Shown: positions 5,917 through 31,716, counted from the stretch's first letter. The stretch is DNA of 64,000 nucleotides from Bacteroidota bacterium (GCA_013288555.1 JABDBQ010000010.1:2030-66029), one strand, 5' to 3'. The notes: a model not told the origin generated them from the sequence alone. Translations and numbers: made by a program.

Positions 5917-6022
5917 GAAGTGAGAGGTGAGAAGTAAGAAGTAAAACGTTACACCGAATCATAATAACCAAATTTCAAATTTCAAATCACAAATCACCAA
6001 TCACAAATCACAAATTACAATA
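5904..6022. repeat. Two adjacent heptamer-periodic arrays (RAGWRAG-type words, then YWCAAAT x8)
   Basis: 5904-5945: gaagaag gagtaag aagtgag aggtgag aagtaag aagtaaa. 5967-6022: accaaat ttcaaat ttcaaat cacaaat caccaat cacaaat cacaaat tacaata. Together they span the tsaB stop to the next start codon. Confidence 0.85.
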
Positions 6023-6025
6023 CTT

Positions 6026-7263: not shown

Positions 7264-7417
7264 GTATCTTGATATCGAATTTTATATTCACATTAGATGT
7301 AATGAGAAGTGAGAAGTGAAAGGTAAAAAGGAAGCGGGAAGCATTCCCTTAACTTACTTTCTCACAATATTTTCACAATATTGAAGTTAGTTATAAGGTT
7401 CAGGAACAAACAAATTT

Positions 7418-8875: not shown

Positions 8876-8916
8876 GTGGCGGCAGTGGTTTGAGCCATCT
8901 CTGGTTATTCAAGAGT

Positions 8917-9097
8917 TTCCCACCCCCTACCCCCGCCAGCGAGGGACAGCTTTAACTTGCTTTATCAGGTAATTTGATATTAATATTTCATATCATCTTT
9001 TTGATGGACAAAGAGATATTGCACAAAAATTTAAAAAATGGTGGTTAATAGCTGTCCCTCCCGAGTACTCGGGACAGGGGTTGGTGCTTTCACCAAC
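8917..9097. repeat. MITE-like intergenic structure: two copies of the CCCGA-hairpin element around an AT-rich core, plus a 7-bp stem hairpin
   Basis: A 16/17-bp IR with one mismatch, GAGGGACAGCTTTAAC (8941-8956) / GTTAATAGCTGTCCCTC (9044-9060). Perfect 16-bp palindrome TCCCGAGTACTCGGGA at 9059-9074. Hairpin GTTGGTG-cttt-CACCAAC at 9080-9097. It sits between convergent genes. Confidence 0.6.
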
Positions 9098-9109
9098 AAA
9101 TCCCCATTC

Positions 9110-14288: not shown

Positions 14289-14306
14289 TCAATTTGAAAA
14301 TTTGGA

Positions 14307-14343
14307 AATGAGGCAATTTGAAAATGAATTTCATTGCCTCATT
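14307..14343. terminator. Hairpin between convergent genes (11-bp perfect stem AATGAGGCAAT / ATTGCCTCATT, 15-nt loop)
   Basis: Arms at 14307-14317 and 14333-14343. The right arm overlaps the stop codon of the minus-strand ORF ending at 14339. There is no strong U-tract, so terminator function is inferred. Confidence 0.5.
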
Positions 14344-15790
14344 GTCTTATTGGCTCATTTTCAAATAGTTTTTCAATTTCATTTAGTAACCAGATGGCGT
14401 TGACAACGTTTTTGGTTTCGATCACCGTTTGCTTCAAGGCTTTGATTTTATTATTGTTGTGCCTGCGCTCATAAGGCAGCATGATTTTATACACAAAGGC
14501 TTTCCGGGCAAATTTCAGCAGGTTGCTATATGTATCAAAAGTATCGGTTGAAATAAGTTTGTTCCTGCTGAGATAGGCTTTGAATGTGGTAATTAATGCA
14601 AAAAAAGACTCTTCCTCATCCAGTTCAAAATAGATTTTGAGCAGCATGGACTTAGAATCCAGGTTATAGTAAACGTCCTTAAAATCAACAGATTGCAATA
14701 AGCGGGTTGCTTTTTTATATTCCCTGGTTTCGTAATAATAGTTGGCCAGGTTATACGTATAGGCGTTTTCACGAACTTCTCCGGGCAATTCCGGTTTCAG
14801 CTCATTAATGATCTTATAGGTCCACTCATGATCTCCCAAACGCAAAGCAATAGAAACCATGTTTTTCAAATCCCACTGCAGGTTTTTGTTATTTGCCTTC
14901 ATAAGCCCTATCTCATGCATATATTTATATATATCAAGCAATTCATTGTAAAACTTTGACACACCGCTGTTTACTTTCCTTATACAATAGTTTTGAAGGT
15001 ATCCGTATAGAGACCGTTGTTCGTCCTGTTCAAAAAGTTGAATATGCTTAGTAACGTCATCTTTCAAAACATTAAAATGCTCCATATTATTGGGGTCCTT
15101 GAGCATAACCAGAATACGGTAATAAATTGAAATGGAAGGTATTACGGTATACTTTTCAAAATTTAATTTTACGATTTCCAATAACTCATCCAGCATGTTA
15201 AATTCATAATCTATGGCCAGAATGCGTTTCCGGTTCATCATTTCACAACTGTCCCTGAGTTTGGCAGATAAATAAAAGATATCCAGCTGATCCACTTTTT
15301 TCTGAAGGCTTTCATCCCCTTGTATTCTCGCCTGATCAAGGAAAATTTTATCAGCCTCCGCCTGGTACTGGAATTCTTCATAATAATAATTGCTGTCACG
15401 ATATGGCTTTTGACTGCTCATTTCCAGAATATCTTTTTGGACAACAGAATACAACTCTTCCAGTTGATTGACTCTGATATAATTGAGGAGGTTAAGTTTT
15501 TGATTCCATTGCTGTTCTGTATATTGTTCTTCGCTCAGAAACGTCTCCATTAATCGCAGAGATTTATACATCAGATCAGGAATTCTGCGCTCTTCGAAAA
15601 TTTTACCCGGGTAAAGTTTTGAATAGATCTCTTCTTTCGAAACATTGAATTTTCCCGGACAAATCAATTTTACAAAGCCTGTAATCTCCTCATTTTTATT
15701 AAAATATGGCGATTGCAAAAAGTCAAGAAACCTTAATTGCTGCTGCTTATTCAGCTTTTGAAGCGTTTTATAAAATTTGCTCTGTTCCAT
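14339..15790 (-). CDS. Uncharacterised all-alpha TPR-like cytoplasmic protein (partner A of giant T9SS protein)
   Basis: 483 aa with no signal peptide or TM segment, colinear with paralog 20617-22065. Shared blocks include SPYFNKNEE, KLNLLNYIRVN, FYLSAKLRDSCEMMNRKRIL, DEQRSLYGYLQNYCIRKVNSG and FKDVYYNLDSKSMLLKIYFE. TPR-like NLANYYYET...KKAT. Confidence 0.75.
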   Translation of the reverse strand: MEQSKFYKTLQKLNKQQQLRFLDFLQSPYFNKNEEITGFVKLICPGKFNVSKEEIYSKLYPGKIFEERRIPDLMYKSLRLMETFLSEEQYTEQQWNQKLNLLNYIRVNQLEELYSVVQKDILEMSSQKPYRDSNYYYEEFQYQAEADKIFLDQARIQGDESLQKKVDQLDIFYLSAKLRDSCEMMNRKRILAIDYEFNMLDELLEIVKLNFEKYTVIPSISIYYRILVMLKDPNNMEHFNVLKDDVTKHIQLFEQDEQRSLYGYLQNYCIRKVNSGVSKFYNELLDIYKYMHEIGLMKANNKNLQWDLKNMVSIALRLGDHEWTYKIINELKPELPGEVRENAYTYNLANYYYETREYKKATRLLQSVDFKDVYYNLDSKSMLLKIYFELDEEESFFALITTFKAYLSRNKLISTDTFDTYSNLLKFARKAFVYKIMLPYERRHNNNKIKALKQTVIETKNVVNAIWLLNEIEKLFENEPIRQ

Positions 15791-15952
15791 AAAACAAATA
15801 TAACAATTTTGTGTAATTTTTCAAAATATCATACTTTTTGTAACTTTCATATTATTCATTTTCAATATTTTAATCTTTTTAATCTTTTAATTTTTTAATA
15901 ATGTATTTGTAAACATGAAAATAATGTGTTTTTTCTTCGCTTTCACATTGCA

Positions 15953-15960
15953 AATCTTTG
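15953..15960 (+). promoter_or_regulatory. Candidate Bacteroidota -7 box (AATCTTTG, 7/8 to TAnnTTTG), 26 nt before the ATG
   Basis: Identical octamer at identical spacing upstream of the paralogous gene (22223-22230). It is part of a conserved block, AATCTTTGTATCATGAATTAWTCTAAATG. Confidence 0.3.
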
Positions 15961-15978
15961 TATCATGAATTAATCTAA

Positions 15979-18900
15979 ATGAAAACAACTAACTTTTCAC
16001 TCAATATGAAAGCACAAATCAACCCCACCCGGGCTCGCAGGTTTCAATTAAATCTAGCAGCCATCCTGCTTTTAATTATTCTCTTTAATGGCTTCAAAAC
16101 CCATGGCCAAAAAGTCAAAAACTTTGCCGCCAATCAGCCCTTCCTTTTTGAAGAAAACAAAGGACAGCTAATGGATGAATCCGGGAATACACTTTCAGAC
16201 ATTAAATACTATGGAAAACAGGGAGATGTATACGTATACTGCAAACCCGGCATGTTGAGTTTTGTTTTCACAAAGATTGAAAAGCAAGCAAATGATGTTT
16301 CCGAGGCAACAGGTATGGAAACGGGATCCCCCTTTGGAAAGCATGTCCCGACTTATTCGGGAGGGGCAGGGGGATTTAAGCGCTCTTCCCACGCCGCACT
16401 CCACGCTTCTGTTTCCACTTCACGAATGGACCTCGTTCTCCTTGGCTCCAATCCCACCCCGTTAATCTCCGCCACAGACCAACAGGAATATTATGAAAAT
16501 TTCTATATCAGTGGGGATGCCAATCGCGAAATCACGAATGTACACACCTATAAAAAAGTTATTTATAAAAACATATATCCGAATATCGACATGCTGCTCA
16601 ATATTGCCAATAAAGGCATGGAATATTCCTTTTTGGTACACCCAGGCGGAAAGGTGAATAATATAAAATTGAGATGGGATGGAGCTGAGAAAGAAGAAGC
16701 TCTAAAAAATGGCGGTATCAAATATGCCAATATTTCGGGAAGCATGGAAGAGAGTGCACCGAAGAGTTTTGTGGATGGGAAAACAATTCAGAGCAGGTTT
16801 TTTAAGGACGGAACTCAGTTCAGTTTTAGAGTAGAAAATTATGATAAGAAAAAAGATTTATTAATTGATCCAACATTAGAATGGGCGACGTATTATGGGG
16901 GGAGTAATATTGATGGATCAAATTGCGTATCAGTTGATAAATTAGGGAATATTGCCATTTGTGGTACTACGGTATCAACATCCGGTATTGCTACTACTGG
17001 ATCATTTCAGTCAACATATTTATATTATTCAGGAGGGTCTGCATATGACGCATTTATTGCCACATTCAGTAACGATGGAAAAAGGCGCTGGGCAACATAT
17101 TATGGATCCTATTTTTCGACTTATGGTCTAATGGGACTAGCATTTGACGGATCCGGAAATGTATATCTTGGAGGAAGTACCGATCAACAAAGCAATATTG
17201 CAACTTCTGGCGCTTACCAAACAACAACAAATTATCAGGATGCGTATCTGGTTAAGTTTGATACTAGTGGTTACAGGCTGTGGGGAACATATTTCGGCGG
17301 AAATTATATTACAAATCTTACAGGAGTTGCTACGGATTCCTCAAATAATGTGTATATAACCGGATTAACCAGAAGTACTACTAATATAGCTACAAATGGG
17401 GCCTATCAAACTTCCATGGCAGGAGGGACAAGTTATGGTGATGCTTTTTTGGCAAAATTCAGCTCAAGCGGTTCAATAATCTGGTCGACCTATTTTGGCG
17501 GTTCCAGCGATGACCTGCCATTTTCAGTGTCAGTTGACAGACTTCAGAATATTTATATAACAGGTCAAACTTCCAGTACAAATGGTATTGCTACATCGGG
17601 GGCTTATAGAACTTATTACAATGGAGGTAATCAATGCGATGGCTTTTTAACAAAATTTAATACAAATGGAGGATTGACCTGGTCTACTTATTTTGGTGGA
17701 CTCGGCTCTGAAGGGGCCGGATTTAAAACTGCAATTGATCGCATTGGCAATATTTATTTAACAGGAATTGCAACAAATTCAGGTTTAGCTACTAGCGGCG
17801 CTTTCAAAACTAATTTCAGCGGCAATGGTGAAGGATTTTTAGCAAAATTTAATACTTCAGGTTACCCCAAATGGGTAACCTATTATGATGGAGGGATTGA
17901 AGGCGTGGTAGTAGATGACACAGGAAACATCTTTATAACAGGCGGAACCCAGAGCACAACCGGAATGACTACGAAATATGCATATCAATCCACACCAACC
18001 AACTTATATCTTGCGCAATTTGACAGCTCGGGCTCGCGACTTTGGGGAACTTATTATGGTTGGGTTGGCACTCCAAATTATGATGAAGTTTTTGGAATTG
18101 CCTGTGACAAATGGAACCATATTTATATTACTGGATTTACAACCAATTCATCAGGGATTTCAACTAAGTATAGTTATCAGCCGTCATATGGAGGGGGCGA
18201 GGATGCATTCTTAGCCAGATTCAAGCTTTGGGCTCATAATGATGCTGGGATAGATTCAATTCAAATCCCAAATGTTAACTGTGCTGATAGCTATCAGGTA
18301 AAAGTAGTATTAAAAAATTACGGATTAAATCCCCTGAAAAAGGTTAACATTCGATTGGATATTAATAGCGATTCATCAAAAACATACCCATGGACCGGAA
18401 ATTTGCAAATGGATAGTTCCGCTTTTGTCAACATGGGATATTTCAATTTTAAACCAGGTAAAGATTCAGTTCGTGTATGGACATCAATGCCCAATGGAGT
18501 TATTGATTCTATTCCACAAAATGATTCTGCGATGGTTATTGCTACTGTTAATTCTTTACCGAATGCTTACACCAGAGGCAATCTTACAATTTGTCAGGGG
18601 CCAGACAGTATTCCCATAGGAACAACATCAATTACCGGCCATACTTATTTGTGGACTTCCAAACCTTCGGGCTTTACCTCAAATATTGATGATCCATTTG
18701 TTAAACCAACAAAAACAACTACATATTACTTAACAGAAACGATTACTGCGACGGGATGTTCTGCTACAGATTCCTCAGTAATATCCGTTAATCCTATACC
18801 AACTGCAAATGCTGGAAAAAGCCGATCAATTTGCTATGGTTATGTTGATACCCTTGGCTCATCCGATGTACCGGGTGATACTTACGCATGGTTCGAATAT

Positions 18901-20535
18901 AATAAAGGGAATATATCTTCTTTAAGCAATCCTATAGTTAAACCAACTAAGACAACGAGGTATTACTTATTTGTAACTAATACCTATTCATGTGCTGATT
19001 CAGACTCAGTGACAATTACTGTCAACCCATTACCAACAGCAAATGCCGGTAAAGACACTTTGATATGTGCAGGAGATTCAGTTCAGTTAGGCGCCGAAAG
19101 TATAACAGGAGATAGTTATTCCTGGTCGGTGGGTCCGGATTCCGAATATAGCTCAACTCTTTCAAATCCTGTTGTTTATCCATTAAAACCCACAACCTAT
19201 TATCTCAGCGTAACAAATGTAAATACGGGCTGTAAAGGAAAAGCGACCGTTTCAGTGAAAGTTAACCCGATACCTTATGCAGATATTTATACTACTGATA
19301 GTGTTTTTTGCCTGTCAGATTCACTTACAGTTTATGACTCTGATACACAGTCAGTTTCTCATAAGTGGTACTTTGGAGATGGTGTTTCTGACACTGGTAA
19401 ATATCCGGCAAAGCATCATTACAAATCAGGAGGTGTATACCATATCTGGCTAAAAGTCACAAATACAACAGGTTGTTCTGATTCATCAGAAAAGACTATC
19501 TATGTTGATGGCTCCTGCGTCTGGCCAGGTGATGCCAACTACGATAAAGTGGATAACATCTATGATCTCCTTGCTATAGGTATTGCCTACAACGATACAG
19601 GAAGCAAAAGAACTGATACGACTACCCAATGGTATGCACATCCCTGCGTAGACTGGACTAAAAGTTTTAAATCGGGGGCAAACCACAAACATGCAGACTG
19701 CAACGGTGATGGAAAAGTAGACAGCCTGGACATGGCTGCCATTGTTAGGAATTACAGCAAATCACATTCAAAATCAGGTGGTTCCATCACCAGTGGCAAC
19801 CCTAATGATCCAGAACTGTCTTTATCGATTTCAAAAGACAGTGTGGGCACTTCGGATACTATATCTATAGAGATGAATCTCGGTACAGCCTCAAAATCCC
19901 TTAGCAACATATACGGTATCGCCTTAACAGTCACTTATGATCCGGTAAATACAGGCCGTGCCAAAAGTTTTTCAGCTGATTTTTCAAATTGCTGGATGGG
20001 AACAGTTGGTAAAAACCTGGTCTATCTTATTCATAATGATTCGATAAATGGTGTTATGGATATTGGTATTACCAGGACAGATCATAAGAACATATCAGGT
20101 TATGGTGAAATTGGTAAACTCACGATCATTATGCCGGATAATGTAGGTGGCAAAAGATTAATCAGGAAAGAATTACGATTTGGTTTGGAGAATATCAAGG
20201 CTATTGATAATGTGGAAGATGATATATCATTGTATACAGTTGGGGATTCCGTATTATTTTATGGCTATTCGAGTGGGATAGCGCCTCTAACCAATACTGA
20301 TAATAATATACGTCTCTATCCCAACCCTGCCCAGTCCACGCTGCACTTAGATGCTGGAAAAGAATTAATTTCTGAAATCGGTATATCAGATATGCTGGGC
20401 AGAAATGTAATGACACTCAAATACAACCAGGTAGGGCAAACAGATATGAATATCGGCCGCCTTATTCCGGGTACTTATTTTATATATATTCTTACAGATC
20501 ATGGTTTTGCACGTTCGAGGTTTGTAAAAGAATAA
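15979..20535 (+). CDS. Giant secreted surface protein 1: N-terminal domain + SBBP beta-propeller repeats + CARDB-like + 3 Ig-like modules + PKD + dockerin-like + cohesin-like + T9SS C-terminal sorting domain
   Basis: 1518 aa. Signal anchor LAAILLLIILF. QPFLFEENKGQ N-domain. About 10 repeats of the type GIATSGAYQT...GG.DAFLAKF..SG...W(S/A)TY(F/Y)GG. NDAGI...KNYG (CARDB-like). PTANAGKD..IC.GDS...Y.W modules. YFGDG...GVYHIWLKVTNTTGCSDS (PKD). GDANYDKVDNIYD and DCNGDGKVDSLD loops. C-terminal LYPNPAQSTLHLD...GTYFIYILTD (T9SS type A CTD). Confidence 0.85.
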   Translation: MKTTNFSLNMKAQINPTRARRFQLNLAAILLLIILFNGFKTHGQKVKNFAANQPFLFEENKGQLMDESGNTLSDIKYYGKQGDVYVYCKPGMLSFVFTKIEKQANDVSEATGMETGSPFGKHVPTYSGGAGGFKRSSHAALHASVSTSRMDLVLLGSNPTPLISATDQQEYYENFYISGDANREITNVHTYKKVIYKNIYPNIDMLLNIANKGMEYSFLVHPGGKVNNIKLRWDGAEKEEALKNGGIKYANISGSMEESAPKSFVDGKTIQSRFFKDGTQFSFRVENYDKKKDLLIDPTLEWATYYGGSNIDGSNCVSVDKLGNIAICGTTVSTSGIATTGSFQSTYLYYSGGSAYDAFIATFSNDGKRRWATYYGSYFSTYGLMGLAFDGSGNVYLGGSTDQQSNIATSGAYQTTTNYQDAYLVKFDTSGYRLWGTYFGGNYITNLTGVATDSSNNVYITGLTRSTTNIATNGAYQTSMAGGTSYGDAFLAKFSSSGSIIWSTYFGGSSDDLPFSVSVDRLQNIYITGQTSSTNGIATSGAYRTYYNGGNQCDGFLTKFNTNGGLTWSTYFGGLGSEGAGFKTAIDRIGNIYLTGIATNSGLATSGAFKTNFSGNGEGFLAKFNTSGYPKWVTYYDGGIEGVVVDDTGNIFITGGTQSTTGMTTKYAYQSTPTNLYLAQFDSSGSRLWGTYYGWVGTPNYDEVFGIACDKWNHIYITGFTTNSSGISTKYSYQPSYGGGEDAFLARFKLWAHNDAGIDSIQIPNVNCADSYQVKVVLKNYGLNPLKKVNIRLDINSDSSKTYPWTGNLQMDSSAFVNMGYFNFKPGKDSVRVWTSMPNGVIDSIPQNDSAMVIATVNSLPNAYTRGNLTICQGPDSIPIGTTSITGHTYLWTSKPSGFTSNIDDPFVKPTKTTTYYLTETITATGCSATDSSVISVNPIPTANAGKSRSICYGYVDTLGSSDVPGDTYAWFEYNKGNISSLSNPIVKPTKTTRYYLFVTNTYSCADSDSVTITVNPLPTANAGKDTLICAGDSVQLGAESITGDSYSWSVGPDSEYSSTLSNPVVYPLKPTTYYLSVTNVNTGCKGKATVSVKVNPIPYADIYTTDSVFCLSDSLTVYDSDTQSVSHKWYFGDGVSDTGKYPAKHHYKSGGVYHIWLKVTNTTGCSDSSEKTIYVDGSCVWPGDANYDKVDNIYDLLAIGIAYNDTGSKRTDTTTQWYAHPCVDWTKSFKSGANHKHADCNGDGKVDSLDMAAIVRNYSKSHSKSGGSITSGNPNDPELSLSISKDSVGTSDTISIEMNLGTASKSLSNIYGIALTVTYDPVNTGRAKSFSADFSNCWMGTVGKNLVYLIHNDSINGVMDIGITRTDHKNISGYGEIGKLTIIMPDNVGGKRLIRKELRFGLENIKAIDNVEDDISLYTVGDSVLFYGYSSGIAPLTNTDNNIRLYPNPAQSTLHLDAGKELISEIGISDMLGRNVMTLKYNQVGQTDMNIGRLIPGTYFIYILTDHGFARSRFVKE
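16324..16377 (+). repeat. Nested palindromic element embedded in-frame in giant gene 1
   Basis: GGATCCCCCTTTGGAAAG-CATGTCCCGACTTATTCGGGA-GGGGCAGGGGGATTT. The same element occurs intergenically at 31662-31716 (opposite orientation) and, without the inner 21-nt hairpin, at 58566-58601. Here it encodes ...GSPFGKHVPTYSGGAGGFK... Confidence 0.8.
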
Positions 20536-20567
20536 TTCCTTCCTCCTTTCTTTCATTCTTTCTTTTT

Positions 20568-20601
20568 AAAGGGAATGCCTCCCCCGGCATTCCCTTTTTT
20601 C
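20568..20601. terminator. Rho-independent-type terminator hairpin
   Basis: AAAGGGAATGCC-tccccc-GGCATTCCCTTT followed by a T run. It sits between convergent genes (giant gene 1 and ORF 20617-22065). Confidence 0.8.
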
Positions 20602-20616
20602 TGCAATTGACCCAAT

Positions 20617-22065
20617 TTATTGGGCATCTTCCATCAATTTATCCGTTTCTTTTAAAAGCCAGGCAAGATTGATTACATTTTTCGAACGGGTCAGTTTGTC
20701 ATTCAATGTCCTGATTTTATGAGAACTATGCCTGCGTTGATAGGGAAGCATCGTCTTGAATACAAATGCTTTCCTGGCAAATTTTAAAAGATTGCTGTAA
20801 GCCAGATGGGTATCTGTTGAAATCAACCTGTTTCTGGTGAGAAAAACCTGAAAAGTATTGACAAGGGCAAAAAATGCTTCTTCTTCATCCTGCTCAAAGT
20901 ATATTTTCAGTAGCATCGATTTGGAATCCAGGTTATAATACACGTCTTTAAAATCGACAGAATGAAGAAGAAGGGTCGCTTTTCTGAAATTTTTGGTTTC
21001 GTAATAATAATTGGCAAGATTATATGCGTATGCATTTTCAGACACCTCTTCGGGCAGCCTTGTTTTCAAAGTTTCGACAATGTCTAACGCCCTCTCGTAT
21101 TTGCCAAGTCGCAAAGCCACCGAAACCATGTTCTTAAGTTCCCATTGCAGATTTTTATTATCAGGGTCCATAAGCCCGATAAGCAGCATATGCTCATAGA
21201 TATCAAACAATTCACTATAAAATGCCGCAGCACCGCTGTTTACTTTTCGTATGCAGTAATTTTGAAGATAGCCGTACAGCGAACGTTGTTCGTCCTGGGG
21301 AAATAACCCGATGTTTTGCTGAAATTCTTCCTGCAGCTTTCTGAAATGCCCGGTATCTTCCGGTTCCCTGAGCATGAGCAGGATTCTGAAATATACTGAG
21401 ATGGCAGGATAATCTTTATATCTCTCAAAATCAGCCTTAATGGCTTCAATAAGGTTATTGAGCAGGTGAAATTCATAGTCAATGCTAAGAATCCTTTTTC
21501 GGTTCATCATTTCACAACTGTCTCTCAGCTTTGCCGAGAGATAAAAAAGATCAAGCCTGTCCACTTTTTTCTGGAGGTTTTCATCTCCTTTGATCTGTGC
21601 CTGGTCGAGAAAAATTTTATAGGCCTCCGACTGGTACATGAATTCCTCATAAAAATAATTACTATCCCTGAACTGCTTTTTAGAACTTAACTCCTGTATC
21701 TCCCGCTGCACCACGCTGTTAAGATCTTCCAGTTCATTTACTCTTATGTAATTAAGCAGATTCAATTTGCGATCCCATGTTTGTGTAGCGTATTGTTCTT
21801 CAGTCAAAAATTCTTCGAGCAGCTTGAGTGATTTGTACAAAAGATCATGCAACCTTCTCGCATCAAATGGCTTACCGGGATATAAAAATTCATAGATTTT
21901 TTTTGGATCATGACTTGCTTTGCCTTGCCGGATCAATGCAACAAATTGCCGAACCTCCTCATTTTTATTAAAATATGGAGAATTTAGAAACTCGATATAC
22001 CGCCTTTGACTGACTTTATCCAGTTTGTCATACGTTTTAATAAATTTACTCTGGTCCATATCCAA
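20617..22065 (-). CDS. Uncharacterised all-alpha TPR-like cytoplasmic protein (partner B, paralog of 14339-15790)
   Basis: 482 aa. Colinear with 14339-15790 and roughly two-thirds identical by eye. Same divergent arrangement with a giant T9SS gene. Confidence 0.75.
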   Translation of the reverse strand: MDMDQSKFIKTYDKLDKVSQRRYIEFLNSPYFNKNEEVRQFVALIRQGKASHDPKKIYEFLYPGKPFDARRLHDLLYKSLKLLEEFLTEEQYATQTWDRKLNLLNYIRVNELEDLNSVVQREIQELSSKKQFRDSNYFYEEFMYQSEAYKIFLDQAQIKGDENLQKKVDRLDLFYLSAKLRDSCEMMNRKRILSIDYEFHLLNNLIEAIKADFERYKDYPAISVYFRILLMLREPEDTGHFRKLQEEFQQNIGLFPQDEQRSLYGYLQNYCIRKVNSGAAAFYSELFDIYEHMLLIGLMDPDNKNLQWELKNMVSVALRLGKYERALDIVETLKTRLPEEVSENAYAYNLANYYYETKNFRKATLLLHSVDFKDVYYNLDSKSMLLKIYFEQDEEEAFFALVNTFQVFLTRNRLISTDTHLAYSNLLKFARKAFVFKTMLPYQRRHSSHKIRTLNDKLTRSKNVINLAWLLKETDKLMEDAQ

Positions 22066-22222
22066 AGATATAAAATATTTGTAAACTAACTCACTAAATG
22101 TACAAAATATTTTTGTATTATATTTATTTTCAATGTTATAATATTTACATTCCCTTAAAAATAGTAAAATTTATAATTGTATATGCTATTAAATTGTGTT
22201 TTTATTTCGGATTCATAGTCCC

Positions 22223-22230
22223 AATCTTTG
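22223..22230 (+). promoter_or_regulatory. Candidate -7 box (AATCTTTG), 26 nt before the ATG of giant gene 2
   Basis: Same octamer and spacing as 15953-15960. Confidence 0.3.
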
Positions 22231-22248
22231 TATCATGAATTATTCTAA

Positions 22249-25200
22249 ATGAAAACAACTAACTTTTCACTCAATATGAAAGCGCATATCAAAATCAACC
22301 CTGCCGACAGATTTCATTCAATTCTGAAGGTAGTCCTGTTTCTGATTCTTTTACTTAAAGGATTACAAACCGAGGCTCAATCCGTTAAAAACTTTGCTAC
22401 TACCCAGCCCTTCTTATTCGAAGAAAACAAAGGACAGCTTAGGGATGAAAACGGGAATGCGCTTTCAGATATCAAATATTATGGAAAACAGGGAGGTGTA
22501 TATATATACTGCAAACCTGGCATGCTGAGTTTCGTATTCACCAAGTCAGAAAAAGAGCCAAATGATATTTCAGAGGCAACTGGGATGCCTGTTTCAGACC
22601 TAGGGGTTCACAATCCTGAATCCATACACGGAAATCAGCGCTCTCCGCTCTCCGCTCTTCGCACTTCTATCACCGCCTCCCGTATGGACCTCGTTCTCCT
22701 CAACTCCAACCCCAATCCTTTAATCACCGCCTCAGACCAACAGGAATATTTTGAAAACTTCTATACCATCGGAGATGCAGATCATGGCATCACCAATGTA
22801 CACACCTATAAAACCCTTATATACAAAAATATATACCCGAATATTGACATGCTGCTCAATGTTGCTGAAAAGGGAATGGAATATTCTTTTTTAGTACACC
22901 CCGGCGGAAATGTGAGCGATATTAAACTGAGATGGAATGGCGCAGAGAAAGAAGAAGCATTGAAAAATGGCGGAATAAAATATGCTAATATGTTGGGGAG
23001 CATGGAAGAAAGTGCACCAAAGAGTTTTGCGGATGGGAAAATGATACAAACAAGTATTTTCAAGGAAGCAAAACAATTCAGTTTTAAAGTAGGACGATAT
23101 AATAAGGGAAAAAAACTATTAATTGACCCCACATTGGTCTGGGCTACGTATATCGGTGGACCCAATTCAAATGCTGGTGGAATAAAGTTAGATGCCGCAG
23201 GAAATTTATACATTGCAGGCACTACAACCCTCGACAACTATTTAACTACCTCTGGTGCATACCAAACATCTTATGGTGGGAATAATGATATTTTCCTTGC
23301 AAAGTTTAGCAACGACGGAAAGCGTCTATGGGCTAGTTATTATGGCGGTTCTGATCAGGATCTTGGTGCTGATTTGAATCTGGATATTCATGGAAATATT
23401 TATATTACTGGAAATACTAAAAGCAGTAATGGTATTGCTACTTCTGGCGCATTTAAAACTTCGTATCCCGGAGGATGGTACGATCCGTTTCTTGCAAAAT
23501 TTAGCAATTCGGGCAATCTGATCTGGGCAACTTATTTTGGAGGCTCCAACTATGATGAATCTGCAAGCGTTGGAACCGACTCTTCTGGGAATGTATATAT
23601 TGGAGGCTGGGCAAGCAGCACTAGTGGGATAGCAACATCTGGTGCACAGCAGACTTATCCTCAAGGAGGGGCAGACGCTTTTCTCGCAAAATTTAATAGT
23701 TCTGGCAGTTTAACATGGGCCACGTATTATGGAGGTTCTGGGCAGGATTATTTATATGGAATGAGCACAGATGCTAAAGGCAATTGTTATTTGACAGGCA
23801 CCACAACTAGTAGTAGTGGAATTGCATTTTCGGGATTTCAAAGCAATTATTATGGCGATACTGATTTTAATGGTACTGTTACTTATGGTGGTGATGCCTT
23901 TCTGGCAAAATTTAATAGCTCTGGACGTCTCCAATGGGGAACATATTACGGTGGGAGCGGTGGCGATGATGCTTCAGGTGTGACGACTGACACTAAAGGA
24001 AACGTTTATATAACAGGCTCAACCACCAGTTTAGGCCGAATTGCAACTACAGGTGCTTTTCAAACTTCGCGAAGTGGGGATGCAGATGGTTTTCTAGTTA
24101 AATTTAACAGCTCCGGGTCACGAATTTGGGGAACATATTATGGAGGTAACTGGAATGCTAACTTAGGCGGAATATCTTTGGACTCAAAGGGTAATATTTA
24201 TTGCACAGGATCAACAAATAGTGATAGTGGAATCGCGACAGTAGGAGCATATGAGACTTCAAATAAATCAGGTCACCAAGATATAATTCTTGCGAAATTC
24301 AACAATACCGGGAACCGCATCTGGGCGACTTATTTAGGAGGAAATGGTACTGATGATGCAGGTGAATCGGTAATCGATTCATCAGGTAATCTTTATTTTA
24401 CAGGTTCTAGTCAAAGTACTGACTTAGCAACTTATAATGCATATCAATCCAATATTGAAACTTTTGGTAATTATTTCGGCATAATAGCAAAATTTACACT
24501 TAATACATATCAAAATGACGCAGGCATTTTGCCAACTCTTGATTCTGTTTCATTTTGTAAAACGCAAAATATATTTGTCCGCCTGAAAAATTTCGGCGGT
24601 AAAGACCTTGATTCAGTCAAAGTTGGTTTATCTATTAATCATAAATTTCAAACTAAATATAATTGGACGGGGAAATTGAAACCTGATAGTACAGTTATTG
24701 TTGATATCGGGAGTTTTTCATTCAATACCGGTCATGATACTGTAATTGCCTGGACTTTGAAACCCAATGGATTATTAGATTCACTTCAGGGTAATGATAC
24801 AGCAATTATCAGTCTTACTCAGAAAGCAAATGCTGGCGGCAACTTTACAATTTGTAGTGGTGGTTCTATTAGAATAGGTTCAAATCCTATAAGCGGCCGT
24901 TCATATTCATGGACTTCAATTCCTGCCGGTTTTACGTCTACAATAAGTGATCCCTATGTAAACCCTCATAAGAATACAACTTATTATCTAATTGAGACGA
25001 TTAATGCCACAGGATGTTCCGATACAGATTCATCGTCAGTTGTTTTATTACCGAATGCAAGAGCAAGTTTTTCCTACAAAACCGGATGTGTTGGAGAAAC
25101 TACAATTTTTATAGATTCGAGCTCATTAGCAAAATCCTATTTTTGGTATTTTGGTGATCATTCTGGTTCCTCTGATTCAAGTATGCATCTTTTACATTTG

Positions 25201-26550
25201 TACAATGATACAGGAACTTATTCTGTTTTTTTGAAGGTGACTAATTCTGACGGTTGTTCTGATTCAATTTCAAAAAATATTACACCCAGACCAAAACCTA
25301 AAGCAGAATATTCTTTTAATAATGTTTGTCCGGGTGATAGTATATCTTTTGTAAATAAAAGCTCAAAATCAAATTCCTATTATTGGGATTTTGGAGACGG
25401 AACATCTTCAACCGATTCAACTCCACCAAAACACTTATATTCGAAATTGGGATCTTATGATGTAAGTTTGGTAGTTATTAATTCAGCTAATTGTGCGGAT
25501 TCAATTTCAAAAACGGTTATGATTTCTCCCTGCGTCTGGCCGGGGGATGCCAACTATGATAAAGTTGATAATATCTATGACCTCCTTGCTATTGGAATCG
25601 CTTATAACGATACTGGCTTTAAAAGAACAGATACCACCACGCAATGGTATGCCCATCCCTGTATGGATTGGAGCAAAAATTTTAAATCGGGTGCAAACCA
25701 CAAACATGCTGATTGTAACGGCGATGGAAAAGTGGATAGCCTTGATATGGCTGCCATCGTAAGGAATTACAGCAAATCACATTCAAAGTCTGGTGGTTCG
25801 ATTACAAGCGGCAACCCAAATGATCCTGCTTTATCTTTATCGATTTCCAAAGACAGTGTTGGCACATCTGATACCATCACTGTACAAATGAATCTCGGGA
25901 CGGCCACGAAAAGCATGAGCAATATTTATGGAATCTGCTATACTGTGACGTATGATCCGGTAAATGTCGGCCGTGCCAAAAGCTTTTCAGCAGATTTTTC
26001 AAATTGCTGGATGGGAACAGTCGGTAAAAACCTGGTCTATCTTGTTCATAACGATTCGGTAAATGGGGTTATGGATATCGGCATAACCAGGACAGATCAT
26101 AAGAATGTATCGGGCTATGGCGAAATTGGTAAACTAACCATTATTACACCCGATAATGTGGGTGGCAAAAGGTTAATCAGGAAAGAACTACGCTTCGGCT
26201 TAGAGAATATCAAAGCCATTGATAATGTGGAAGATGATGTATCATTATATATAGTTGGGGATTCCGTATTATTTTATGGCTATTCAGCTGGTATAGCACC
26301 TCAAACTAATATTGATAATAATATACATCTCTATCCCAACCCTGCACAATCCACAATGCACATAGACGCAGGAAAGGAACTGATTTCTGAAATCGGGATA
26401 TCAGATATCCTGGGTAGAAAAGTAATGACCCTGAAACATGATCAGGTCCGGCAAACAGATATGAACATCAGCAGCCTTATTCCGGGCACTTATTTTATAT
26501 ATATTCTTACAGATCATGGTTTTGCACGTTCGAGATTTGTGAAAGATTAA
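22249..26550 (+). CDS. Giant secreted surface protein 2 (SBBP repeats + CARDB-like + 1 Ig-like module + 3 PKD + dockerin-like + cohesin-like + T9SS CTD)
   Basis: 1433 aa. The N-terminal ~290 aa and C-terminal 339 aa are colinear with gene 1. The centre is divergent, with three PKD-like units (FGDHSG...VFLKVTNSDGCSDS; WDFGDGTSS...VSLVVINSANCADS). Confidence 0.85.
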   Translation: MKTTNFSLNMKAHIKINPADRFHSILKVVLFLILLLKGLQTEAQSVKNFATTQPFLFEENKGQLRDENGNALSDIKYYGKQGGVYIYCKPGMLSFVFTKSEKEPNDISEATGMPVSDLGVHNPESIHGNQRSPLSALRTSITASRMDLVLLNSNPNPLITASDQQEYFENFYTIGDADHGITNVHTYKTLIYKNIYPNIDMLLNVAEKGMEYSFLVHPGGNVSDIKLRWNGAEKEEALKNGGIKYANMLGSMEESAPKSFADGKMIQTSIFKEAKQFSFKVGRYNKGKKLLIDPTLVWATYIGGPNSNAGGIKLDAAGNLYIAGTTTLDNYLTTSGAYQTSYGGNNDIFLAKFSNDGKRLWASYYGGSDQDLGADLNLDIHGNIYITGNTKSSNGIATSGAFKTSYPGGWYDPFLAKFSNSGNLIWATYFGGSNYDESASVGTDSSGNVYIGGWASSTSGIATSGAQQTYPQGGADAFLAKFNSSGSLTWATYYGGSGQDYLYGMSTDAKGNCYLTGTTTSSSGIAFSGFQSNYYGDTDFNGTVTYGGDAFLAKFNSSGRLQWGTYYGGSGGDDASGVTTDTKGNVYITGSTTSLGRIATTGAFQTSRSGDADGFLVKFNSSGSRIWGTYYGGNWNANLGGISLDSKGNIYCTGSTNSDSGIATVGAYETSNKSGHQDIILAKFNNTGNRIWATYLGGNGTDDAGESVIDSSGNLYFTGSSQSTDLATYNAYQSNIETFGNYFGIIAKFTLNTYQNDAGILPTLDSVSFCKTQNIFVRLKNFGGKDLDSVKVGLSINHKFQTKYNWTGKLKPDSTVIVDIGSFSFNTGHDTVIAWTLKPNGLLDSLQGNDTAIISLTQKANAGGNFTICSGGSIRIGSNPISGRSYSWTSIPAGFTSTISDPYVNPHKNTTYYLIETINATGCSDTDSSSVVLLPNARASFSYKTGCVGETTIFIDSSSLAKSYFWYFGDHSGSSDSSMHLLHLYNDTGTYSVFLKVTNSDGCSDSISKNITPRPKPKAEYSFNNVCPGDSISFVNKSSKSNSYYWDFGDGTSSTDSTPPKHLYSKLGSYDVSLVVINSANCADSISKTVMISPCVWPGDANYDKVDNIYDLLAIGIAYNDTGFKRTDTTTQWYAHPCMDWSKNFKSGANHKHADCNGDGKVDSLDMAAIVRNYSKSHSKSGGSITSGNPNDPALSLSISKDSVGTSDTITVQMNLGTATKSMSNIYGICYTVTYDPVNVGRAKSFSADFSNCWMGTVGKNLVYLVHNDSVNGVMDIGITRTDHKNVSGYGEIGKLTIITPDNVGGKRLIRKELRFGLENIKAIDNVEDDVSLYIVGDSVLFYGYSAGIAPQTNIDNNIHLYPNPAQSTMHIDAGKELISEIGISDILGRKVMTLKHDQVRQTDMNISSLIPGTYFIYILTDHGFARSRFVKD

Positions 26551-26629
26551 TTCCGGTTTTTTACACATCAAGACAACAAATTTTTGGACATGAATTATCT
26601 AAACAAAACCATCTAACTTTTCACTCTTT

Positions 26630-29600
26630 ATGAAAGTACAAATCAACCCCACCCTGGCACACAGGTTTCATTTAAATCTAATAGCCATTTTGTTATTAGC
26701 TGTTCTTTTTAATGCCTTCAATTCACAGGCGCAAAAGGTTAAAAACTTCAATACTTCTCAGCCATTCCTCTTTGAAGAGAACAAGGGACAACTGATGGAT
26801 GAAAGCGGGAATGCGCTTAGTGATATTAAATATTATGGAAAGCAGGGAGGTGTATATGTGTATTGCAAGTCCGGCATGTTGAGTTTTGTTTTCACAAAGA
26901 TTGAAAAGGGACAAGATGATGTTTCCGAGGCAACAGGTATGGAAACGGAATCCCCCTTTGGAAAGCATGTCCCGACTTATTCGGGAGGGGCAGGGGGATT
27001 TAAGCGCTCTTCGCTCTCCGCTCTTCACACTTCTATCACTGCCTCCCGCATGGACCTCGTTCTCCTTGGCTCCAACCCCACCCCTTCAATCACCGCCACT
27101 GACCAGCAGGAATACTATGAAAACTTCTACACCGGCGGAGATGCGAACCATGGCATCACCAATGTACACACCTATAAAACCCTTACCTATAAAAACATAT
27201 ACCCGAATATTGATATGAATCTGAATGTTGCCAAAAATGGTATTGAATATTCCTTTTTAGTCCATCCCGGAGGCAATGTAAGCGATATAAAATTGCGATG
27301 GAATGGGGCTGAGAAAGAAGAAGCACTGAAAAATGGAGGGATTAAATATGCCAATACGTTGGGAACATTGGAAGAGAGTGCGCCAAAGAGTTTTGTGGAA
27401 GGGAAATTGGTGAAAAGCATATCTGTTAAAAAAGGATTGGAATATAGTTTTGAGGTTGGAGGCTATGATAAAAGAAAAGATTTGGTTATAGATCCGAGTT
27501 TAGTTTGGGGGACCTATTTTGGAGGGTCAACTGAAGAACTAATATATGGAATTACAACTGATAACTTAAAAAATATATATATTATCGGTGAATCTACCAG
27601 CAAAACTGGAATTACAACCACTGGCGCATTTGAAACAAGTACTCCGAGTACTAATAATGGTGCAGTGCTTTTGGCAAAATTTAATGAGAACGGAACACCA
27701 GCATGGGTAACATACTATGCCGGCAACTCTCAAGATTGGGGTCTTGCAATAACTACTGATTATTTAGGGAACCTTTATTTTACGGGCTATACGTACAGTA
27801 GTTCTGGAATTGCAACTAATGGCACTTATCAAACTTCAACCGTAGGAAATGGGTACTCGGATGTGTTTATTGCAAAGTTTAGTACAGATGGAATTCGTAA
27901 GTGGGGCACATATTTTGGAGGGGCAGGAGACGAATTTGGATTTGATATAAAGATGGACGGACATTCTAATCTGTACGTTACAGGAAAAACCAATAGTAAA
28001 TCTAACATTGCAACCAAAGGAGCATTTCAAACCAGTTTTTCAGGAAAGATTGACGCTTTTCTAGCGCGGTTCGATTCAAGCGGTAATTTGAATTGGGCGA
28101 CATATTTTGGTGCTGATAGTACAATTGGTGAAAAAATAGTTTCAGACTTATCAGGAAATGTTTTTCTGTCAGGAGTAACGGATAGTAACAGTGTTATTGC
28201 AACAAAAGGCGCATATCAGACTTCATATGGTGGAGGTAGAAATGATGCATTCATAGCTAAATTCAATAAAAACGGAAATAGAATATGGTCAACATATTTT
28301 GGAGGCAATTGCTGGGAGAGTTTTAATTCTTCTCAAGGAATTGTCGCTGATAAAAAGGGACATTTATATCTAAGCGGTGGGACATGCAGTCAGACAGGAA
28401 TTGCAACTGCTGGCGCATACCAAACCTCAATAGGGGGGGAAATGATGTTTATCTGGCTAAATTCGATACTAGTGGGAAAATAATATGGAGCACTTATTTT
28501 GGGGGACCGAACGCAGATGATGGATCCAATATTATTTTAGATTCATTTAATAATATTTATATTTCAGGATACACTCAAAGTACTTCGGGTATAGCAACAA
28601 CCGATGCATTTCAACCAACATATAGCAGTGGCTATAACAACACCTTTATTGCAAAATTTGATAATAATGGCTCAAGATTATGGGCTTCCTATTATGGTTT
28701 TAGCTGGTGTTATGGAATTGTCTGGTTAAATGATTATCAAATTTTAATCGCTGGATATGCGACAAATACCCCAGGAATCGCTACATCAGGTGCATTTCAA
28801 ACAAAATCAAAAGGCACTTGGAATGGTTTTATTGCGGATATAAATTTTAAAGTCAATAATGATGCAGGCATAAGTTCAATACCTTCCTCTAAAGGTGTTT
28901 TTTGTGGGAATTCTCAACAATTGAAGATATCATTAAAAAATTATGGTAATCATGAATTGGATTCCGTAAAAATTGGATGGTCGGTTAACAGCAAAGTTGT
29001 ATCATCGTATGCCTGGACTGGCAAGTTAAAATCAGACAGTTCAATTTCCGTAACTCTCGGCAGTTTTAAATTCCCAAATGGAACTGACACCATAAAAGTC
29101 TGGACCTATAACCCAAATGGCACTACCGATTCGACTCCGCAGAATGATTCCTCCTTTGCAATTATTACAGTCAATCCTACCCCATCCGCCAATGCGGGAA
29201 AAAACAGATCGGTATGCTTTGGAGTTATGGATACTATTGGCTCTTCATCAGTACCTAACGATGCTTATTTCTGGACTTCAAATCCAACAAGTGTAATTGG
29301 TTCGGTTAGCAATCCAGTAGTTAGTCCTGCTGTCACAACAACTTATTATCTCTACGAAACCAATTCATACGCATGTGTTGGTAAAGACTCAGTAACACTA
29401 ACTGTTAACCCATTGCCAACAGCAAATGCCGGAAAAGACACATTGGTTTGCTTTGGTGATTCGGTTTTTCTTGGCACTAAACCAGATACAGGTTATTCAT
29501 ACAGTTGGTCTTCAAGCCCTTCAGGTTTTAGGTCTATCCTTGCAAATCCCCGCCTAGTTCCAAAGTCCAGCGCTGCATATTATCTCTCGATTACTTCCAA

Positions 29601-30915
29601 TAGTACCGGCTGCACCGGGCTTGATACTGCATATGGTTCCGTCAACCCTCTGCCCCATGCCAGATTTTCAGTATCCGATACTCTTTTTTGTACACAGGAT
29701 TCGCTTGGTTTAATAGATTCATCAACCGGTGCGGTTTCTTATGTATGGACATTTGGGGATGGGACTACCGATACCGGCAAAAATATTCATAAACATCATT
29801 TTACAAAGACGGGCCCTTATCATATCCGGCTTATTGTTACCAATTCATCAGGGTGTTCAGATTCCACGAAAACCTGGGTGTATCCTGATGGTGACTGCGT
29901 CTGGCCCGGTGATGCCAACTATGATAAGGTTGACAATATTTACGATCTCCTTGCAATTGGTATTGGCTATAATAATAGTGAATATAATAGATTGGATACC
30001 ACCACCCAATGGTATGCGCATCCCTGCGAAGACTGGCATAAAAGCTTCAAATCCGGAACAAATTATAAACATGCGGATTGCAATGGCGATGGAATAATTG
30101 ACAGCCTGGATATAGCCGCCATCATACGGAATTACAGCAAATCACATTCAAAGTCCGGTGGTTCTATTACAAGCGGCAACCCGAATGACCCGGCTCTGTC
30201 TTTATCCATATCCAAAGATAGTGTTGGCACTTCAGATACCATATCTGTACAGATGAATCTCGGGACAGCCTCAAAATCCCTCAGCAATATTTATGGCATC
30301 TGTTATACTGTTACGTATGATCCGGTAAATGTAGGCCGCGCCAAAAGCTTTTCAGCAGATTTTTCGAATTGCTGGATGGGAACAGTTGGTAAAAACCTGG
30401 TCTATCTTGTTCATAACGATTCGGTAAACGGGGTTATGGATATCGGCATAACCAGGACAGATCATAAGAATGTATCAGGGTATGGCGAAATTGGTAAACT
30501 CACCATTATTACACCTGATAATGTGGGCGGCAAAAGGTTAATCAGGAAAGAACTTCGGTTTGGTTTTGAGAACATAAAAGCCATTGATAATGTGGAAGAT
30601 GATGTATCATTATATACAGTGGGAGATTCTGTATTATTTTATGGCTATTCAGCTGGTATAGCACCCCAAACTAATACTGATAGTAATATACATCTCTATC
30701 CCAACCCTGCACAATCCATATTGCACATAGACGCAGGAAAGGAACTGATTTCTGAAATCGGGATATCGGATATCCTGGGTAGAAAAGTGATGACTATGAA
30801 ATATGCTCAGGTCCGGCAAACAGATATGAACATCAATAGCCTTATTCCGGGTACTTATTTTATATATATTTTTACAGATCATGGTTTTGCACGTTCGAGA
30901 TTTGTGAAAGATTAA
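26630..30915 (+). pseudogene. Giant secreted surface protein 3, interrupted by a frameshift in a G7 tract (ORFs 26630-28483 and 28384-30915)
   Basis: The two ORFs are contiguous parts of one paralog. At 28433-28439 (GGGGGGG) the frame changes. With 8 G the reading is ...AYQTSIGGGNDVYLAKFDTSGKIIWSTYFGG, a canonical SBBP repeat, giving one 1428-aa ORF. Confidence 0.8.
26956..27010 (+). repeat. Nested palindromic element embedded in-frame in giant gene 3
   Basis: GGAATCCCCCTTTGGAAAGCATGTCCCGACTTATTCGGGAGGGGCAGGGGGATTT, near-identical to 16324-16377. Gene 2 has unrelated sequence at this position. Confidence 0.8.
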
Positions 30916-30944
30916 TTCCTCCCTTCTTTTCCTCCTTTCTTCTT

Positions 30945-30980
30945 AAAGGGAATGCCTGATTGACGGGTATTCCCTTTTTT
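30945..30980 (+). terminator. Rho-independent-type terminator hairpin after giant gene 3
   Basis: AAAGGGAATGCC...GGGTATTCCCTTT followed by TTTTT. Homologous to the hairpin at 20568-20601. Confidence 0.7.
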
Positions 30981-31360
30981 GTGAAACATTTTTAAAAATA
31001 TTTTTGCTTATAACTAAATGAATATAAATAAGATAAAAAATATTTTTGGAAATCACCCACCCAGTTTGGTACTTCACTATATATGTATATAAAAGGCGTT
31101 AGGCATCAGGAGTTAGGAGTTAGAGGCTGGCGCAAACAAATTGAACAAAATCCTCTTAATTCTAAAATCCTGTAAATCCTGATTCAGAAAAATATGAAAA
31201 AGATAAACCTTTGCTTTTTGGCATTCTCGATTGATCCCGAGTGCTCGGGACTGTTATTGTCTGATATTTGTCAATGAATTACGTGTAAATAACTAAATTT
31301 CAATAAGCTAAAAAATGAAAAAATGAATTTCCCTGTTAAAACAGTGAGAACACGTGTGCC

Positions 31361-31447
31361 GCCTGTCCCGCCTGTCCCGCCTGTCCCGACCTCTTCGGGG
31401 ACCTCTTCGGGGACTTATTCTGGGACTTCTTCGGGGACTTATCCGGG
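31361..31447. repeat. Tandem repeats: 9-mer GCCTGTCCC x3, then 12-mer GACYTNTTCGGG x5
   Basis: 9-mers at 31361-31387 and 12-mers at 31388-31447. The units are the two arms of the CCTGTCCCGA-loop-TCGGGA hairpin element amplified separately. ORF 31323-31517 is just their translation. Confidence 0.85.
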
Positions 31448-31661
31448 AAGCCAGAATGCTCAGAATGGCTTTTCCAAAAAAAACAAAACCGGCATAACAC
31501 TATTTGGCAAAGTGTAACCCCGGTTTAAAACTTAAATATTTCATTATCAATATAATATAAAAAATATTATCAGGCCAAAAACAAGAAAAAATGTTACCCT
31601 TAATGCTTGTTTTAAACAGGATGAAACGGTACGCAGGAAGGGTGCTGTGCTAAAACAAAAA

Positions 31662-31716
31662 TCCCCCTACCCTCCCGAGTAATCGGGACAGGCACTTTGG
31701 AAAGGGGGAATCCCTA
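31662..31716. repeat. Nested palindromic element, intergenic copy (opposite orientation to the copies in the giant genes)
   Basis: TCCCCCTACCCTCCCGAGTAATCGGGACAGGCACTTTGGAAAGGGGGAATCCC. The inner hairpin is TCCCGA-GTAA-TCGGGA at 31673-31688. Confidence 0.8.

Follow-up and report, generated by a model that had tools for sequence, protein, structure and literature searches.

Divergence along three tandem giant genes of an uncultured soil Bacteroidota points to separate histories of their ends and middles

Here we analyse a 64,000-nucleotide (nt) stretch of DNA (the window: contig C10, bases 2030-66029, of a 2.84-Mb metagenome-assembled genome (MAG)), in which three giant genes, called genes 1, 2 and 3 below, form a tandem array of modular surface proteins that are predicted from their domains to be secreted by way of a type IX secretion system (T9SS). 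The first-pass annotation of this stretch had described three co-linear paralogs with constant ends and variable cores, arranged as a cassette-like mosaic, and had considered the pattern to fit concerted evolution of the ends or purifying selection on them, together with diversified cores. Co-linearity of the three genes is borne out (Table 1), and at a probability of about three in four we favour a history in which a unit made up of one giant cargo gene and a divergently oriented partner gene was duplicated long ago, the ends of the giant genes were homogenised later, and ends and middles have had separate histories. The array comprises five large genes located between an S46 peptidase gene and hisS/hutH, in the order partner 1, gene 1, partner 2, gene 2 and gene 3. 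The host is an uncultured, Chitinophagales-like soil member of the Bacteroidota; the window sequence is contained in a single public run, a soil metagenome from 2019, one gene of the source genome has distant relatives in MAGs of Chitinophagales, Saprospiraceae and Bacteroidia, and no relative from the same genus was found in the genome set that we searched.

Each giant protein is built from the same parts in the same order. In gene 1 these are a putative signal peptide, a DUF7948 domain, a propeller of SBBP repeats, three immunoglobulin (Ig)-like modules, one PKD module, a dockerin-like segment, a cohesin-like segment and a T9SS sorting domain, and a hydrophobic N-terminal leader is visible in the translations of the giant genes. 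Matches to Pfam and NCBIfam follow this layout across the giant genes (DUF7948, SBBP repeats, Ig_7, PKD, a sub-threshold Dockerin_1 and a T9SS type A sorting domain). The sorting domain is found in all three genes with both PF18962 (32.9-38.9 bits, cut-off 27) and TIGR04183 (35.7-36.6 bits, cut-off 23), and SBBP (PF06739, cut-off 20.5) scores 69.3 bits in gene 1, 127.7 bits over seven stretches in gene 2, and 65.7 and 34.2 bits in the two halves of gene 3. Motifs and Pfam matches together agree with the earlier module count for gene 1, and correct it for the other two, with two rather than three PKD modules in gene 2 and two rather than three Ig-like modules in gene 3.

Key to the favoured history is that divergence along the genes remains strongly non-uniform after proper alignment, for which proteins were aligned with MAFFT, a codon alignment was threaded on the protein alignment, and Nei-Gojobori estimates were taken in windows. 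The N-terminal block (N block) of about 290 amino acids (aa) is 70-77% identical at the protein level and 74-80% at the nucleotide level among the three genes, the next best match to that of gene 1 elsewhere in the genome being about 50% identical, and the C-terminal block (C block) of 339 aa is 88-91% and 83-89% identical, respectively, and spans exactly the three intervals first proposed for it (19516-20535, 25531-26550 and 29896-30915). Between these ends, aa identity drops to 42-45% in the propeller and 33-53% in the mid region, and the cores, which are about 43% identical as proteins, share 51-55% of their nucleotides when propeller and mid region are taken together. Within the ends, the proportion of nonsynonymous differences (pN) is 0.01-0.2 and that of synonymous differences (pS) mostly 0.4-0.75, giving pN/pS of about 0.05-0.2; purifying selection is strong, as the first-pass annotation had supposed, and these values also mean that most of the ends have not been copied recently. 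Its further suggestion that the C blocks of genes 2 and 3 are the closest pair applies to the last ~780 nt (92.2% identity versus 85%) but not to the first 240 nt, where genes 1 and 2 are nearest (83.3% versus 77%). The many synonymous changes that it had assigned to gene 1 are mostly not specific to this gene; over the opening third of the C block, every pair is strongly diverged at synonymous sites.

As a measure of age we compared third positions of fourfold-degenerate codons that encode the same amino acid in both genes, for which base composition predicts saturation at 0.72. By this measure the cores differ at 0.66-0.70 of sites (0.66-0.68 for the core of gene 1), the N block at 0.38-0.48 and the C block at 0.31-0.48, with minima of 0.18 between genes 1 and 3 (codons 76-150) and 0.24 between genes 2 and 3 (last 200 codons); Fisher tests of ends against cores give p values of 6e-4, 2e-7 and 7e-11 for the three pairs. 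Outgroups were obtained through homologs of the partner gene, which led to syntenic loci in related species (L035, L036/L037 and L038), each with one partner and one cargo gene beside genes for YicC, Gmk, a CTP-transferase and an outer-membrane protein. Over codons 1-80 of the C block, fourfold sites are near saturation in all pairs and the protein is 80-90% identical. From codon 81 to the end, paralogs differ from one another at 0.27-0.44 of fourfold sites, versus 0.66-0.75 when compared with the orthologs at L035, L036 and L038; for gene 1, the same 3' tract stands at 0.44 to genes 2 and 3 and at 0.67-0.73 to the outgroups. Since these sites are saturated against three outgroup orthologs, they are not themselves constrained. 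Furthermore, partners 1 and 2 differ at 52/80 fourfold sites (0.65), and the ends are thus younger than the duplicated unit in which they reside. These values, together with the trees described next, indicate that concerted evolution has acted on the ends alongside selection.

Phylogenetic trees of the C block change topology within the block. For codons 1-75, gene 3 groups with the L035 ortholog (support 99/99), whereas the approximately unbiased (AU) test rejects a three-paralog clade (p 4e-4); at the nucleotide level, the first 80 codons of the gene 3 C block share 79% identity with L035, compared with 77% for genes 1 and 2. For codons 81-339, the tree resolves as (gene 1,(gene 2,gene 3)) with support of 96/100, and a grouping of gene 3 with L035 is rejected (p 6e-37). 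As in families shaped by conversion, the paralogs resemble one another more than they do their orthologs along one part of the gene, and the trees on the two sides of the breakpoint are incongruent; the switch inside the C block indicates that gene conversion has homogenised the 3' ~780 nt. Site patterns are heterogeneous in both ends (chi-square p 3e-6 for the C block, 3e-8 for the N block). In the N block, genes 1 and 3 share 39 consecutive concordant polymorphic sites, a run unmatched in 5000 permutations (p <= 2e-4), and in the tract of ~90 nt that contains it lies, in frame, an element built of nested palindromes (AATCCCCC...TCCCGA-loop-TCGGGA...GGGGGATT) that is absent from gene 2. Genes 1 and 3 carry this element within their DUF7948 loop (16324-16377 and 26956-27010), and further copies lie in intergenic DNA at 31662-31716 and 58566-58601. 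Exact repeats between copies of the giant genes reach only 47-63 nt. An ortholog of gene 2 from a near-identical strain (P0121) differs from gene 2 at nine N-block sites, seven of which carry the residue of gene 1 or gene 3, a pattern that fits conversion and derived point changes in the window equally well. Conversion between the two partner genes was also considered and is unsupported, as partner 1 states occur at 13/37 sites in L034, a contig from an independent run, and at 14/37 in the window.

The cores follow a different course. The source genome encodes more than 20 cargo genes with DUF7948 and SBBP repeats, and about a dozen genes with the same type of C block, among which the three propellers are not mutual best matches; that of gene 2 is nearest to a gene on contig C1 (50%) and that of gene 3 to one on contig C83 (45%). 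Recent import of a cassette from a sequenced source is unsupported, there being no close match to any core in the genome or among 5.8 billion proteins. Replacement of a head can nevertheless be followed between species. The cargo genes of L036 (10001-14518) and L038 (6001-10524) are syntenic positional orthologs with 77%, 73% and 75% aa identity in the N, mid and C regions but 49% in the propeller, at loci where housekeeping proteins are 86-94% and the partner 85% identical. The replaced stretch comprises the ~450-aa propeller only, has sharp edges at both borders, and differs at 75/102 fourfold sites versus 195/384 in its flanks (p 5e-5). At L035, the cargo gene (5963-9811, minus strand) retains the same leader (MKTTNFSL...), stalk and C block, and a beta-helix-like head takes the place of both DUF7948 and the propeller. 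This second type of head begins with QL(K/S)G(N/T)YTIDP..., looks like a parallel beta-helix, and is also carried by genes on contigs C41 and C36 of the source genome, occurring twice in the latter. The propeller swap between L036 and L038 and the alternative head on the same C block lend independent support to the cassette-like arrangement first proposed for the window, and heads and ends thus have decoupled histories across the family.

Mechanisms that generate diversity within a resident core were also considered. In P0121 the propeller is 100% identical to that of gene 2 over 465 aa, and the partner region in L034 is ~2% different; the propeller is therefore not hypermutable on short time scales. 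A search for the repeat of a diversity-generating retroelement across 14000-31500 found none, no reverse transcriptase or recombinase was present among the ten flanking genes scanned, the flanking genes are housekeeping genes, and core divergence is saturated in all classes of site, a profile other than that of a diversity-generating retroelement.

The favoured history can be laid out as a series of steps. A unit of partner gene and divergently transcribed cargo gene was duplicated long ago, partners and cores now being saturated at synonymous sites, and unequal recombination would have placed a cargo-only copy, gene 3, behind gene 2. Gene conversion later homogenised the last ~780 nt in all three copies, with the latest event between genes 2 and 3, and genes 1 and 3 have the ~90-nt tract of the N block in common. 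The remaining similarity of the ends, notably over the dockerin-like codons 1-80 of the C block, is maintained by purifying selection alone. The ends would presumably be kept alike for machinery that the paralogs share, i.e. export, recognition of the sorting domain, attachment and possibly docking between paralogs through cohesin and dockerin; propeller and stalk, which may differ in binding specificity, would be exchanged or retained whole, with the flanks providing handles for recombination.

A number of observations weigh against this account. The nearest match to any core is 50% identical in the source genome and 51-53% identical among 5.8 billion proteins, so that these searches yielded no donor. 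A tree of 22 propellers of the source genome is a star, in which the AU test fails to reject descent of the three cores from a single ancestor (p 0.22), and the cores may have diverged rapidly in place. The p values obtained from the C-block trees are optimistic, since the partition was picked after the sliding windows had been viewed, although the effect is large all the same. For the N block, the three-paralog clade is weak (84/91) and grouping by orthologs is barely rejected (p 0.10 for DNA and 0.03 for protein). All sequences compared derive from metagenome assemblies, the source genome itself being 67.5% complete, and the functions given to the giant proteins are predictions from their domains.

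The alternative that fares best, although we regard it as improbable, is that whole genes were duplicated recently and their cores then diverged fast in place, through diversifying selection or hypermutation, with neither conversion nor import. The three ends do form clades against other species, the propeller tree is compatible with a common origin of the cores, no core donor was found, and SBBP repeats set a floor of ~45% identity that masks the real distance between cores. Recent duplication is at odds, however, with synonymous sites that are saturated in the cores but not in the ends, with partners 1 and 2 that equal the cores in age and fall into different parts of their tree, and with the grouping of the dockerin-like part of gene 3 with another species; the unchanged propeller of the near-identical strain and the lack of a reverse transcriptase or recombinase among the flanking genes scanned also speak against rapid divergence in place.

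We consider it more improbable still that a short-read assembler, switching between copies or strains, created both the tracts and a frameshift in gene 3. The source is a 102-contig MAG of limited completeness from a soil metagenome, the related contig L034 is broken precisely where the gene ends are repeated, and in the sister strain the 921-aa protein finishes with odd sequence near residue 906. Nonetheless, exact repeats do not exceed 63 nt, and the 780-nt tract contains scattered differences, unlike a collapsed repeat. L034 (98.0% identity) independently confirms the order of the gene 1 3' end, partner 2 and the gene 2 5' end, and the pattern of ends versus core is repeated in independent assemblies of other species. 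Least probable of all is selection acting on old duplicates without any exchange, the ends staying constant as secretion and anchoring domains that tolerate few changes, for while the very low pN/pS of the ends agrees with it and it suffices for codons 1-80 of the C block, it is contradicted over the 3' 780 nt and leaves unexplained the low fourfold divergence of the last 259 codons among paralogs (0.27-0.44, versus 0.66-0.75 to outgroups), the strongly supported topology switch inside the C block, the 39-site run shared by genes 1 and 3, and the saturation of the partner genes at 0.65.

Table 1. Positions of the giant genes, their parts and associated features, counted from the first nucleotide of the window.
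Feature	Position	Strand	Remarks
Partner gene 1	14339-15790	-	483 aa; all-alpha, TPR-like; divergent from gene 1
Giant gene 1	15979-20535	+	1518 aa; translation may in fact begin at the second ATG (16006)
Gene 1, N block (leader and DUF7948)	15979-16860	+	
Gene 1, variable core (SBBP propeller, CARDB-like, Ig-like, PKD)	16861-19515	+	
Gene 1, C block	19516-20535	+	dockerin-like, codons 1-82; predicted cohesin fold, 93-254; T9SS type A sorting domain, 263-339
Gene 1, homogenised 3' tract	19756-20535	+	last ~260 codons of the C block
Conversion-like tract, genes 1 and 3	16297-16387 and 26921-27011	+	~90 nt; 39-site run; exact matches of 63, 38 and 33 nt
Intrinsic terminator after gene 1	20568-20603	+	12-bp stem, U run; -19.7 kcal/mol, z -5.7
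Partner gene 2	20617-22065	-	482 aa; divergent from gene 2
Giant gene 2	22249-26550	+	1433 aa; same part order as gene 1; 1 Ig-like, 2 PKD
Gene 2, C block	25531-26550	+	last 780 nt (25771-26550) 92.2% identical to gene 3
Gene 2/gene 3 junction	26551-26629	+	gene 2 stop and TTCC, then decayed copy of ~75-nt 5' leader
Giant gene 3	26630-30915	+	~1428 aa if unbroken; two frames; 2 Ig-like, 1 PKD; no partner gene of its own
Run of seven G, frame change of gene 3	28433-28439	+	within Gly-Gly-Gly stretch of an SBBP blade
Gene 3, C block, first 80 codons (dockerin-like)	29896-30135	+	lineage differs from genes 1 and 2
Gene 3, homogenised 3' tract (cohesin-like and sorting domain)	30136-30915	+	
Intrinsic terminator after gene 3	30945-30983	+	14-bp stem, U run; -23 kcal/mol, z -5.0

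The partner genes provide a second view of the age and reach of the module. Partners 1 and 2 share 65% aa identity and match no family in a Pfam/NCBIfam scan, and their 165 homologs are unannotated or at best named hypothetical or tetratricopeptide-repeat (TPR) proteins. An AlphaFold model of partner 2 (mean predicted local distance difference test (pLDDT) 94) depicts an all-alpha, TPR-like solenoid, with weak matches in the PDB to TPR, NprR and Rap-type structures (E about 4e-3). In the partner tree, partner 1 joins the orthologs from L036 and L038 (SH-aLRT 90) and not partner 2, which places the duplication of the unit at about the same age as the splits between those species. Divergent pairs of a partner and a C-block cargo gene recur on contigs C41, C36 and C35 of the source genome and at four loci in distant MAGs, where the heads are different and where one locus carries two cargo genes in tandem; the locus scan for this family used a narrowed alignment, the broad one being too diverse. 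Of the dozen or so C-block genes in the source genome, the nearest ones, including genes 1 and 2, each lie beside a partner. Across the window, these contigs and loci L035, L036, L038, L040 and L042-L044, the ~480-aa partner is invariably paired, in divergent orientation, with a C-block cargo gene, whatever the head.

Structure prediction offers a candidate role for the constant C-terminal end. An AlphaFold model of the 339-aa C block, computed from an alignment of 13 family members (pLDDT 79), divides into a helical stretch at residues 1-82, a beta-sandwich at residues 93-254 and, at 263-339, the sorting domain. In Foldseek searches of the PDB the sandwich matches type I and type II cohesins (E 1e-10 to 1e-7, target template-modelling (TM) score 0.58-0.77, probability 1.0), and the modelled middle of the C block is thus predicted to adopt a cohesin fold. 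The first segment scores 21.8-22.5 bits against Dockerin_1 (PF00404), just under its cut-off of 22.9, and contains two D-x-N-x-D-G motifs resembling calcium loops; in the model it forms three helices over residues 17-78, and its matches to PDB dockerins have E values of 0.2-0.3 over 25 residues. Sequence searches of the PDB with the C block or the partner returned nothing useful, and a quick full-text literature search turned up no description, among titles and the openings of abstracts, of dockerin-like and cohesin modules placed in cis before a T9SS sorting domain. A bolder extension of the favoured history would have the flanks (leader and DUF7948 on the upstream side, stalk and cohesin-like/sorting block on the downstream side) act as handles for the exchange of whole heads, either SBBP propellers or beta-helices, throughout the lineage. 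Paralogs with different heads would dock with one another at the cell surface by means of the dockerin-like and cohesin-like modules that each carries in cis, controlled or tended by the TPR-like partner; we hold this to be unlikely as it stands.

Gene 3 departs from the other two copies in several respects. Treated as one protein in the first-pass annotation, it in fact comprises two open frames (26630-28483 and 28384-30915), with the frameshift between them at a run of seven G and the rest of the 4.3-kb frame intact. A search for a further copy in a collection of 5.8 billion proteins found none. Gene 3 would be a pseudogene of very recent date, inactivated at the G run, or else the victim of an assembly error. 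Upstream, it is fused to the gene 2 stop codon through a decayed relic of the ~75-nt leader preceding genes 1 and 2, in which the first ATG is now ACA, and it is from this fusion that we infer that unequal recombination added a cargo-only copy downstream of gene 2. Folding of the stretch between these two genes gives no terminator (-3.7 kcal/mol, z +0.7). Hairpins after genes 1 and 3 are homologous to each other; they come from folding, a general terminator scan having missed both. A scan for sigma-70 promoters gave 60 sites versus 62 in shuffled sequence, with a consensus that is unsuited to Bacteroidota. The array is likely to consist of two units, one with partner 1 and gene 1 in divergent orientation and a terminator, and another with partner 2 facing away from gene 2 and gene 3, followed by a single terminator. 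Gene 3, which has neither the first start codon nor a promoter region of its own, is probably carried on the transcript of gene 2.

The mosaic is real and well supported, and recombination of this pattern is already familiar from surface-protein families of bacteria. Its closest parallel is found in the Bab paralogs of Helicobacter pylori (BabA, BabB and BabC), which have near-identical termini and a divergent middle, form chimeras by gene conversion and include one copy that is switched by a frameshift in a repeat tract (PMC4552749). The array shares with them the pattern of termini and middle, conversion between loci and a frameshift at a repeat tract. The Bab proteins differ in being outer-membrane beta-barrels encoded at dispersed loci of a host-adapted pathogen, with a switch of CT dinucleotides, whereas the array encodes tandem T9SS cargo with propeller, Ig-like and PKD modules in a soil bacterium, its conversion is old, and the run of seven G is only a putative switch. 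Among T9SS cargo of Bacteroidota, the closest counterpart is the gingipain/HagA family. In Porphyromonas gingivalis, surface proteins have been diversified by domain rearrangement and allelic exchange, resulting in mosaics unrelated to strain phylogeny (PMC5266723). The gingipain/HagA family, which is likewise diversified by rearrangement, consists of proteases with haemagglutinin/adhesin repeats whose variation is documented between cultured strains; the array, by contrast, combines a variable SBBP propeller and an Ig/PKD stalk with a constant block of dockerin-like, cohesin-like and sorting domains, encoded beside a TPR-like partner.

Two further families overlap with the array in individual modules. 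The SBBP propeller is common to the array and the LipL53-type proteins of Leptospira (NF047494), to which partial matches were obtained (E 8e-29 and 2e-44). At 100.6 and 152.2 bits these matches lie far under the 400-bit cut-off and place the array outside that family, whose Leptospira members are lipoproteins without DUF7948, stalk, cohesin-like block or T9SS sorting domain. Cellulosomal modules have in common with the C block a cohesin fold and dockerin-like calcium-loop motifs. In the C block, however, both are located in cis within one Gram-negative T9SS cargo protein, identity to known cohesins is 8-17%, and binding is only putative. Beyond what is known from these systems, our comparisons are suggestive of the exchange of whole heads on a constant, cohesin-bearing block accompanied by a conserved partner.

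The array offers a quantified case of decoupled histories within single genes, outside the usual examples from pathogens, with younger and partly homogenised ends around middles that are either ancient or imported, and points to a large unstudied family. If the C block does dock paralogs to one another, this would explain its uniformity and would add a cellulosome-like principle of assembly to T9SS surfaces; if, furthermore, heads are exchanged and paralogs dock as in the bolder extension above, the family would represent a modular and re-loadable form of T9SS surface display in environmental Bacteroidota. On the practical side, arrays of this kind fragment short-read assemblies and may lead both ortholog calling and scans of dN/dS astray.

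Variation between closely related strains was also seen at the locus. Over window positions 20490-22304, L034 differs at 37 sites that are strongly clustered, with none in 20645-21367, 13 in 21368-21499 and five in 22136-22155, which suggests imports by recombination between strains. An exact-word scan of metagenome contigs for DNA of the sister strain returned no match. P0121 departs from gene 2 near residues ~906-921 and ends at 921 aa, as a structural variant or as an artefact of a contig end. Elsewhere in the window, the minus strand at 39174-40745 encodes a 523-aa protein with 12 WG-containing beta repeats (PF14903, E 2e-135).

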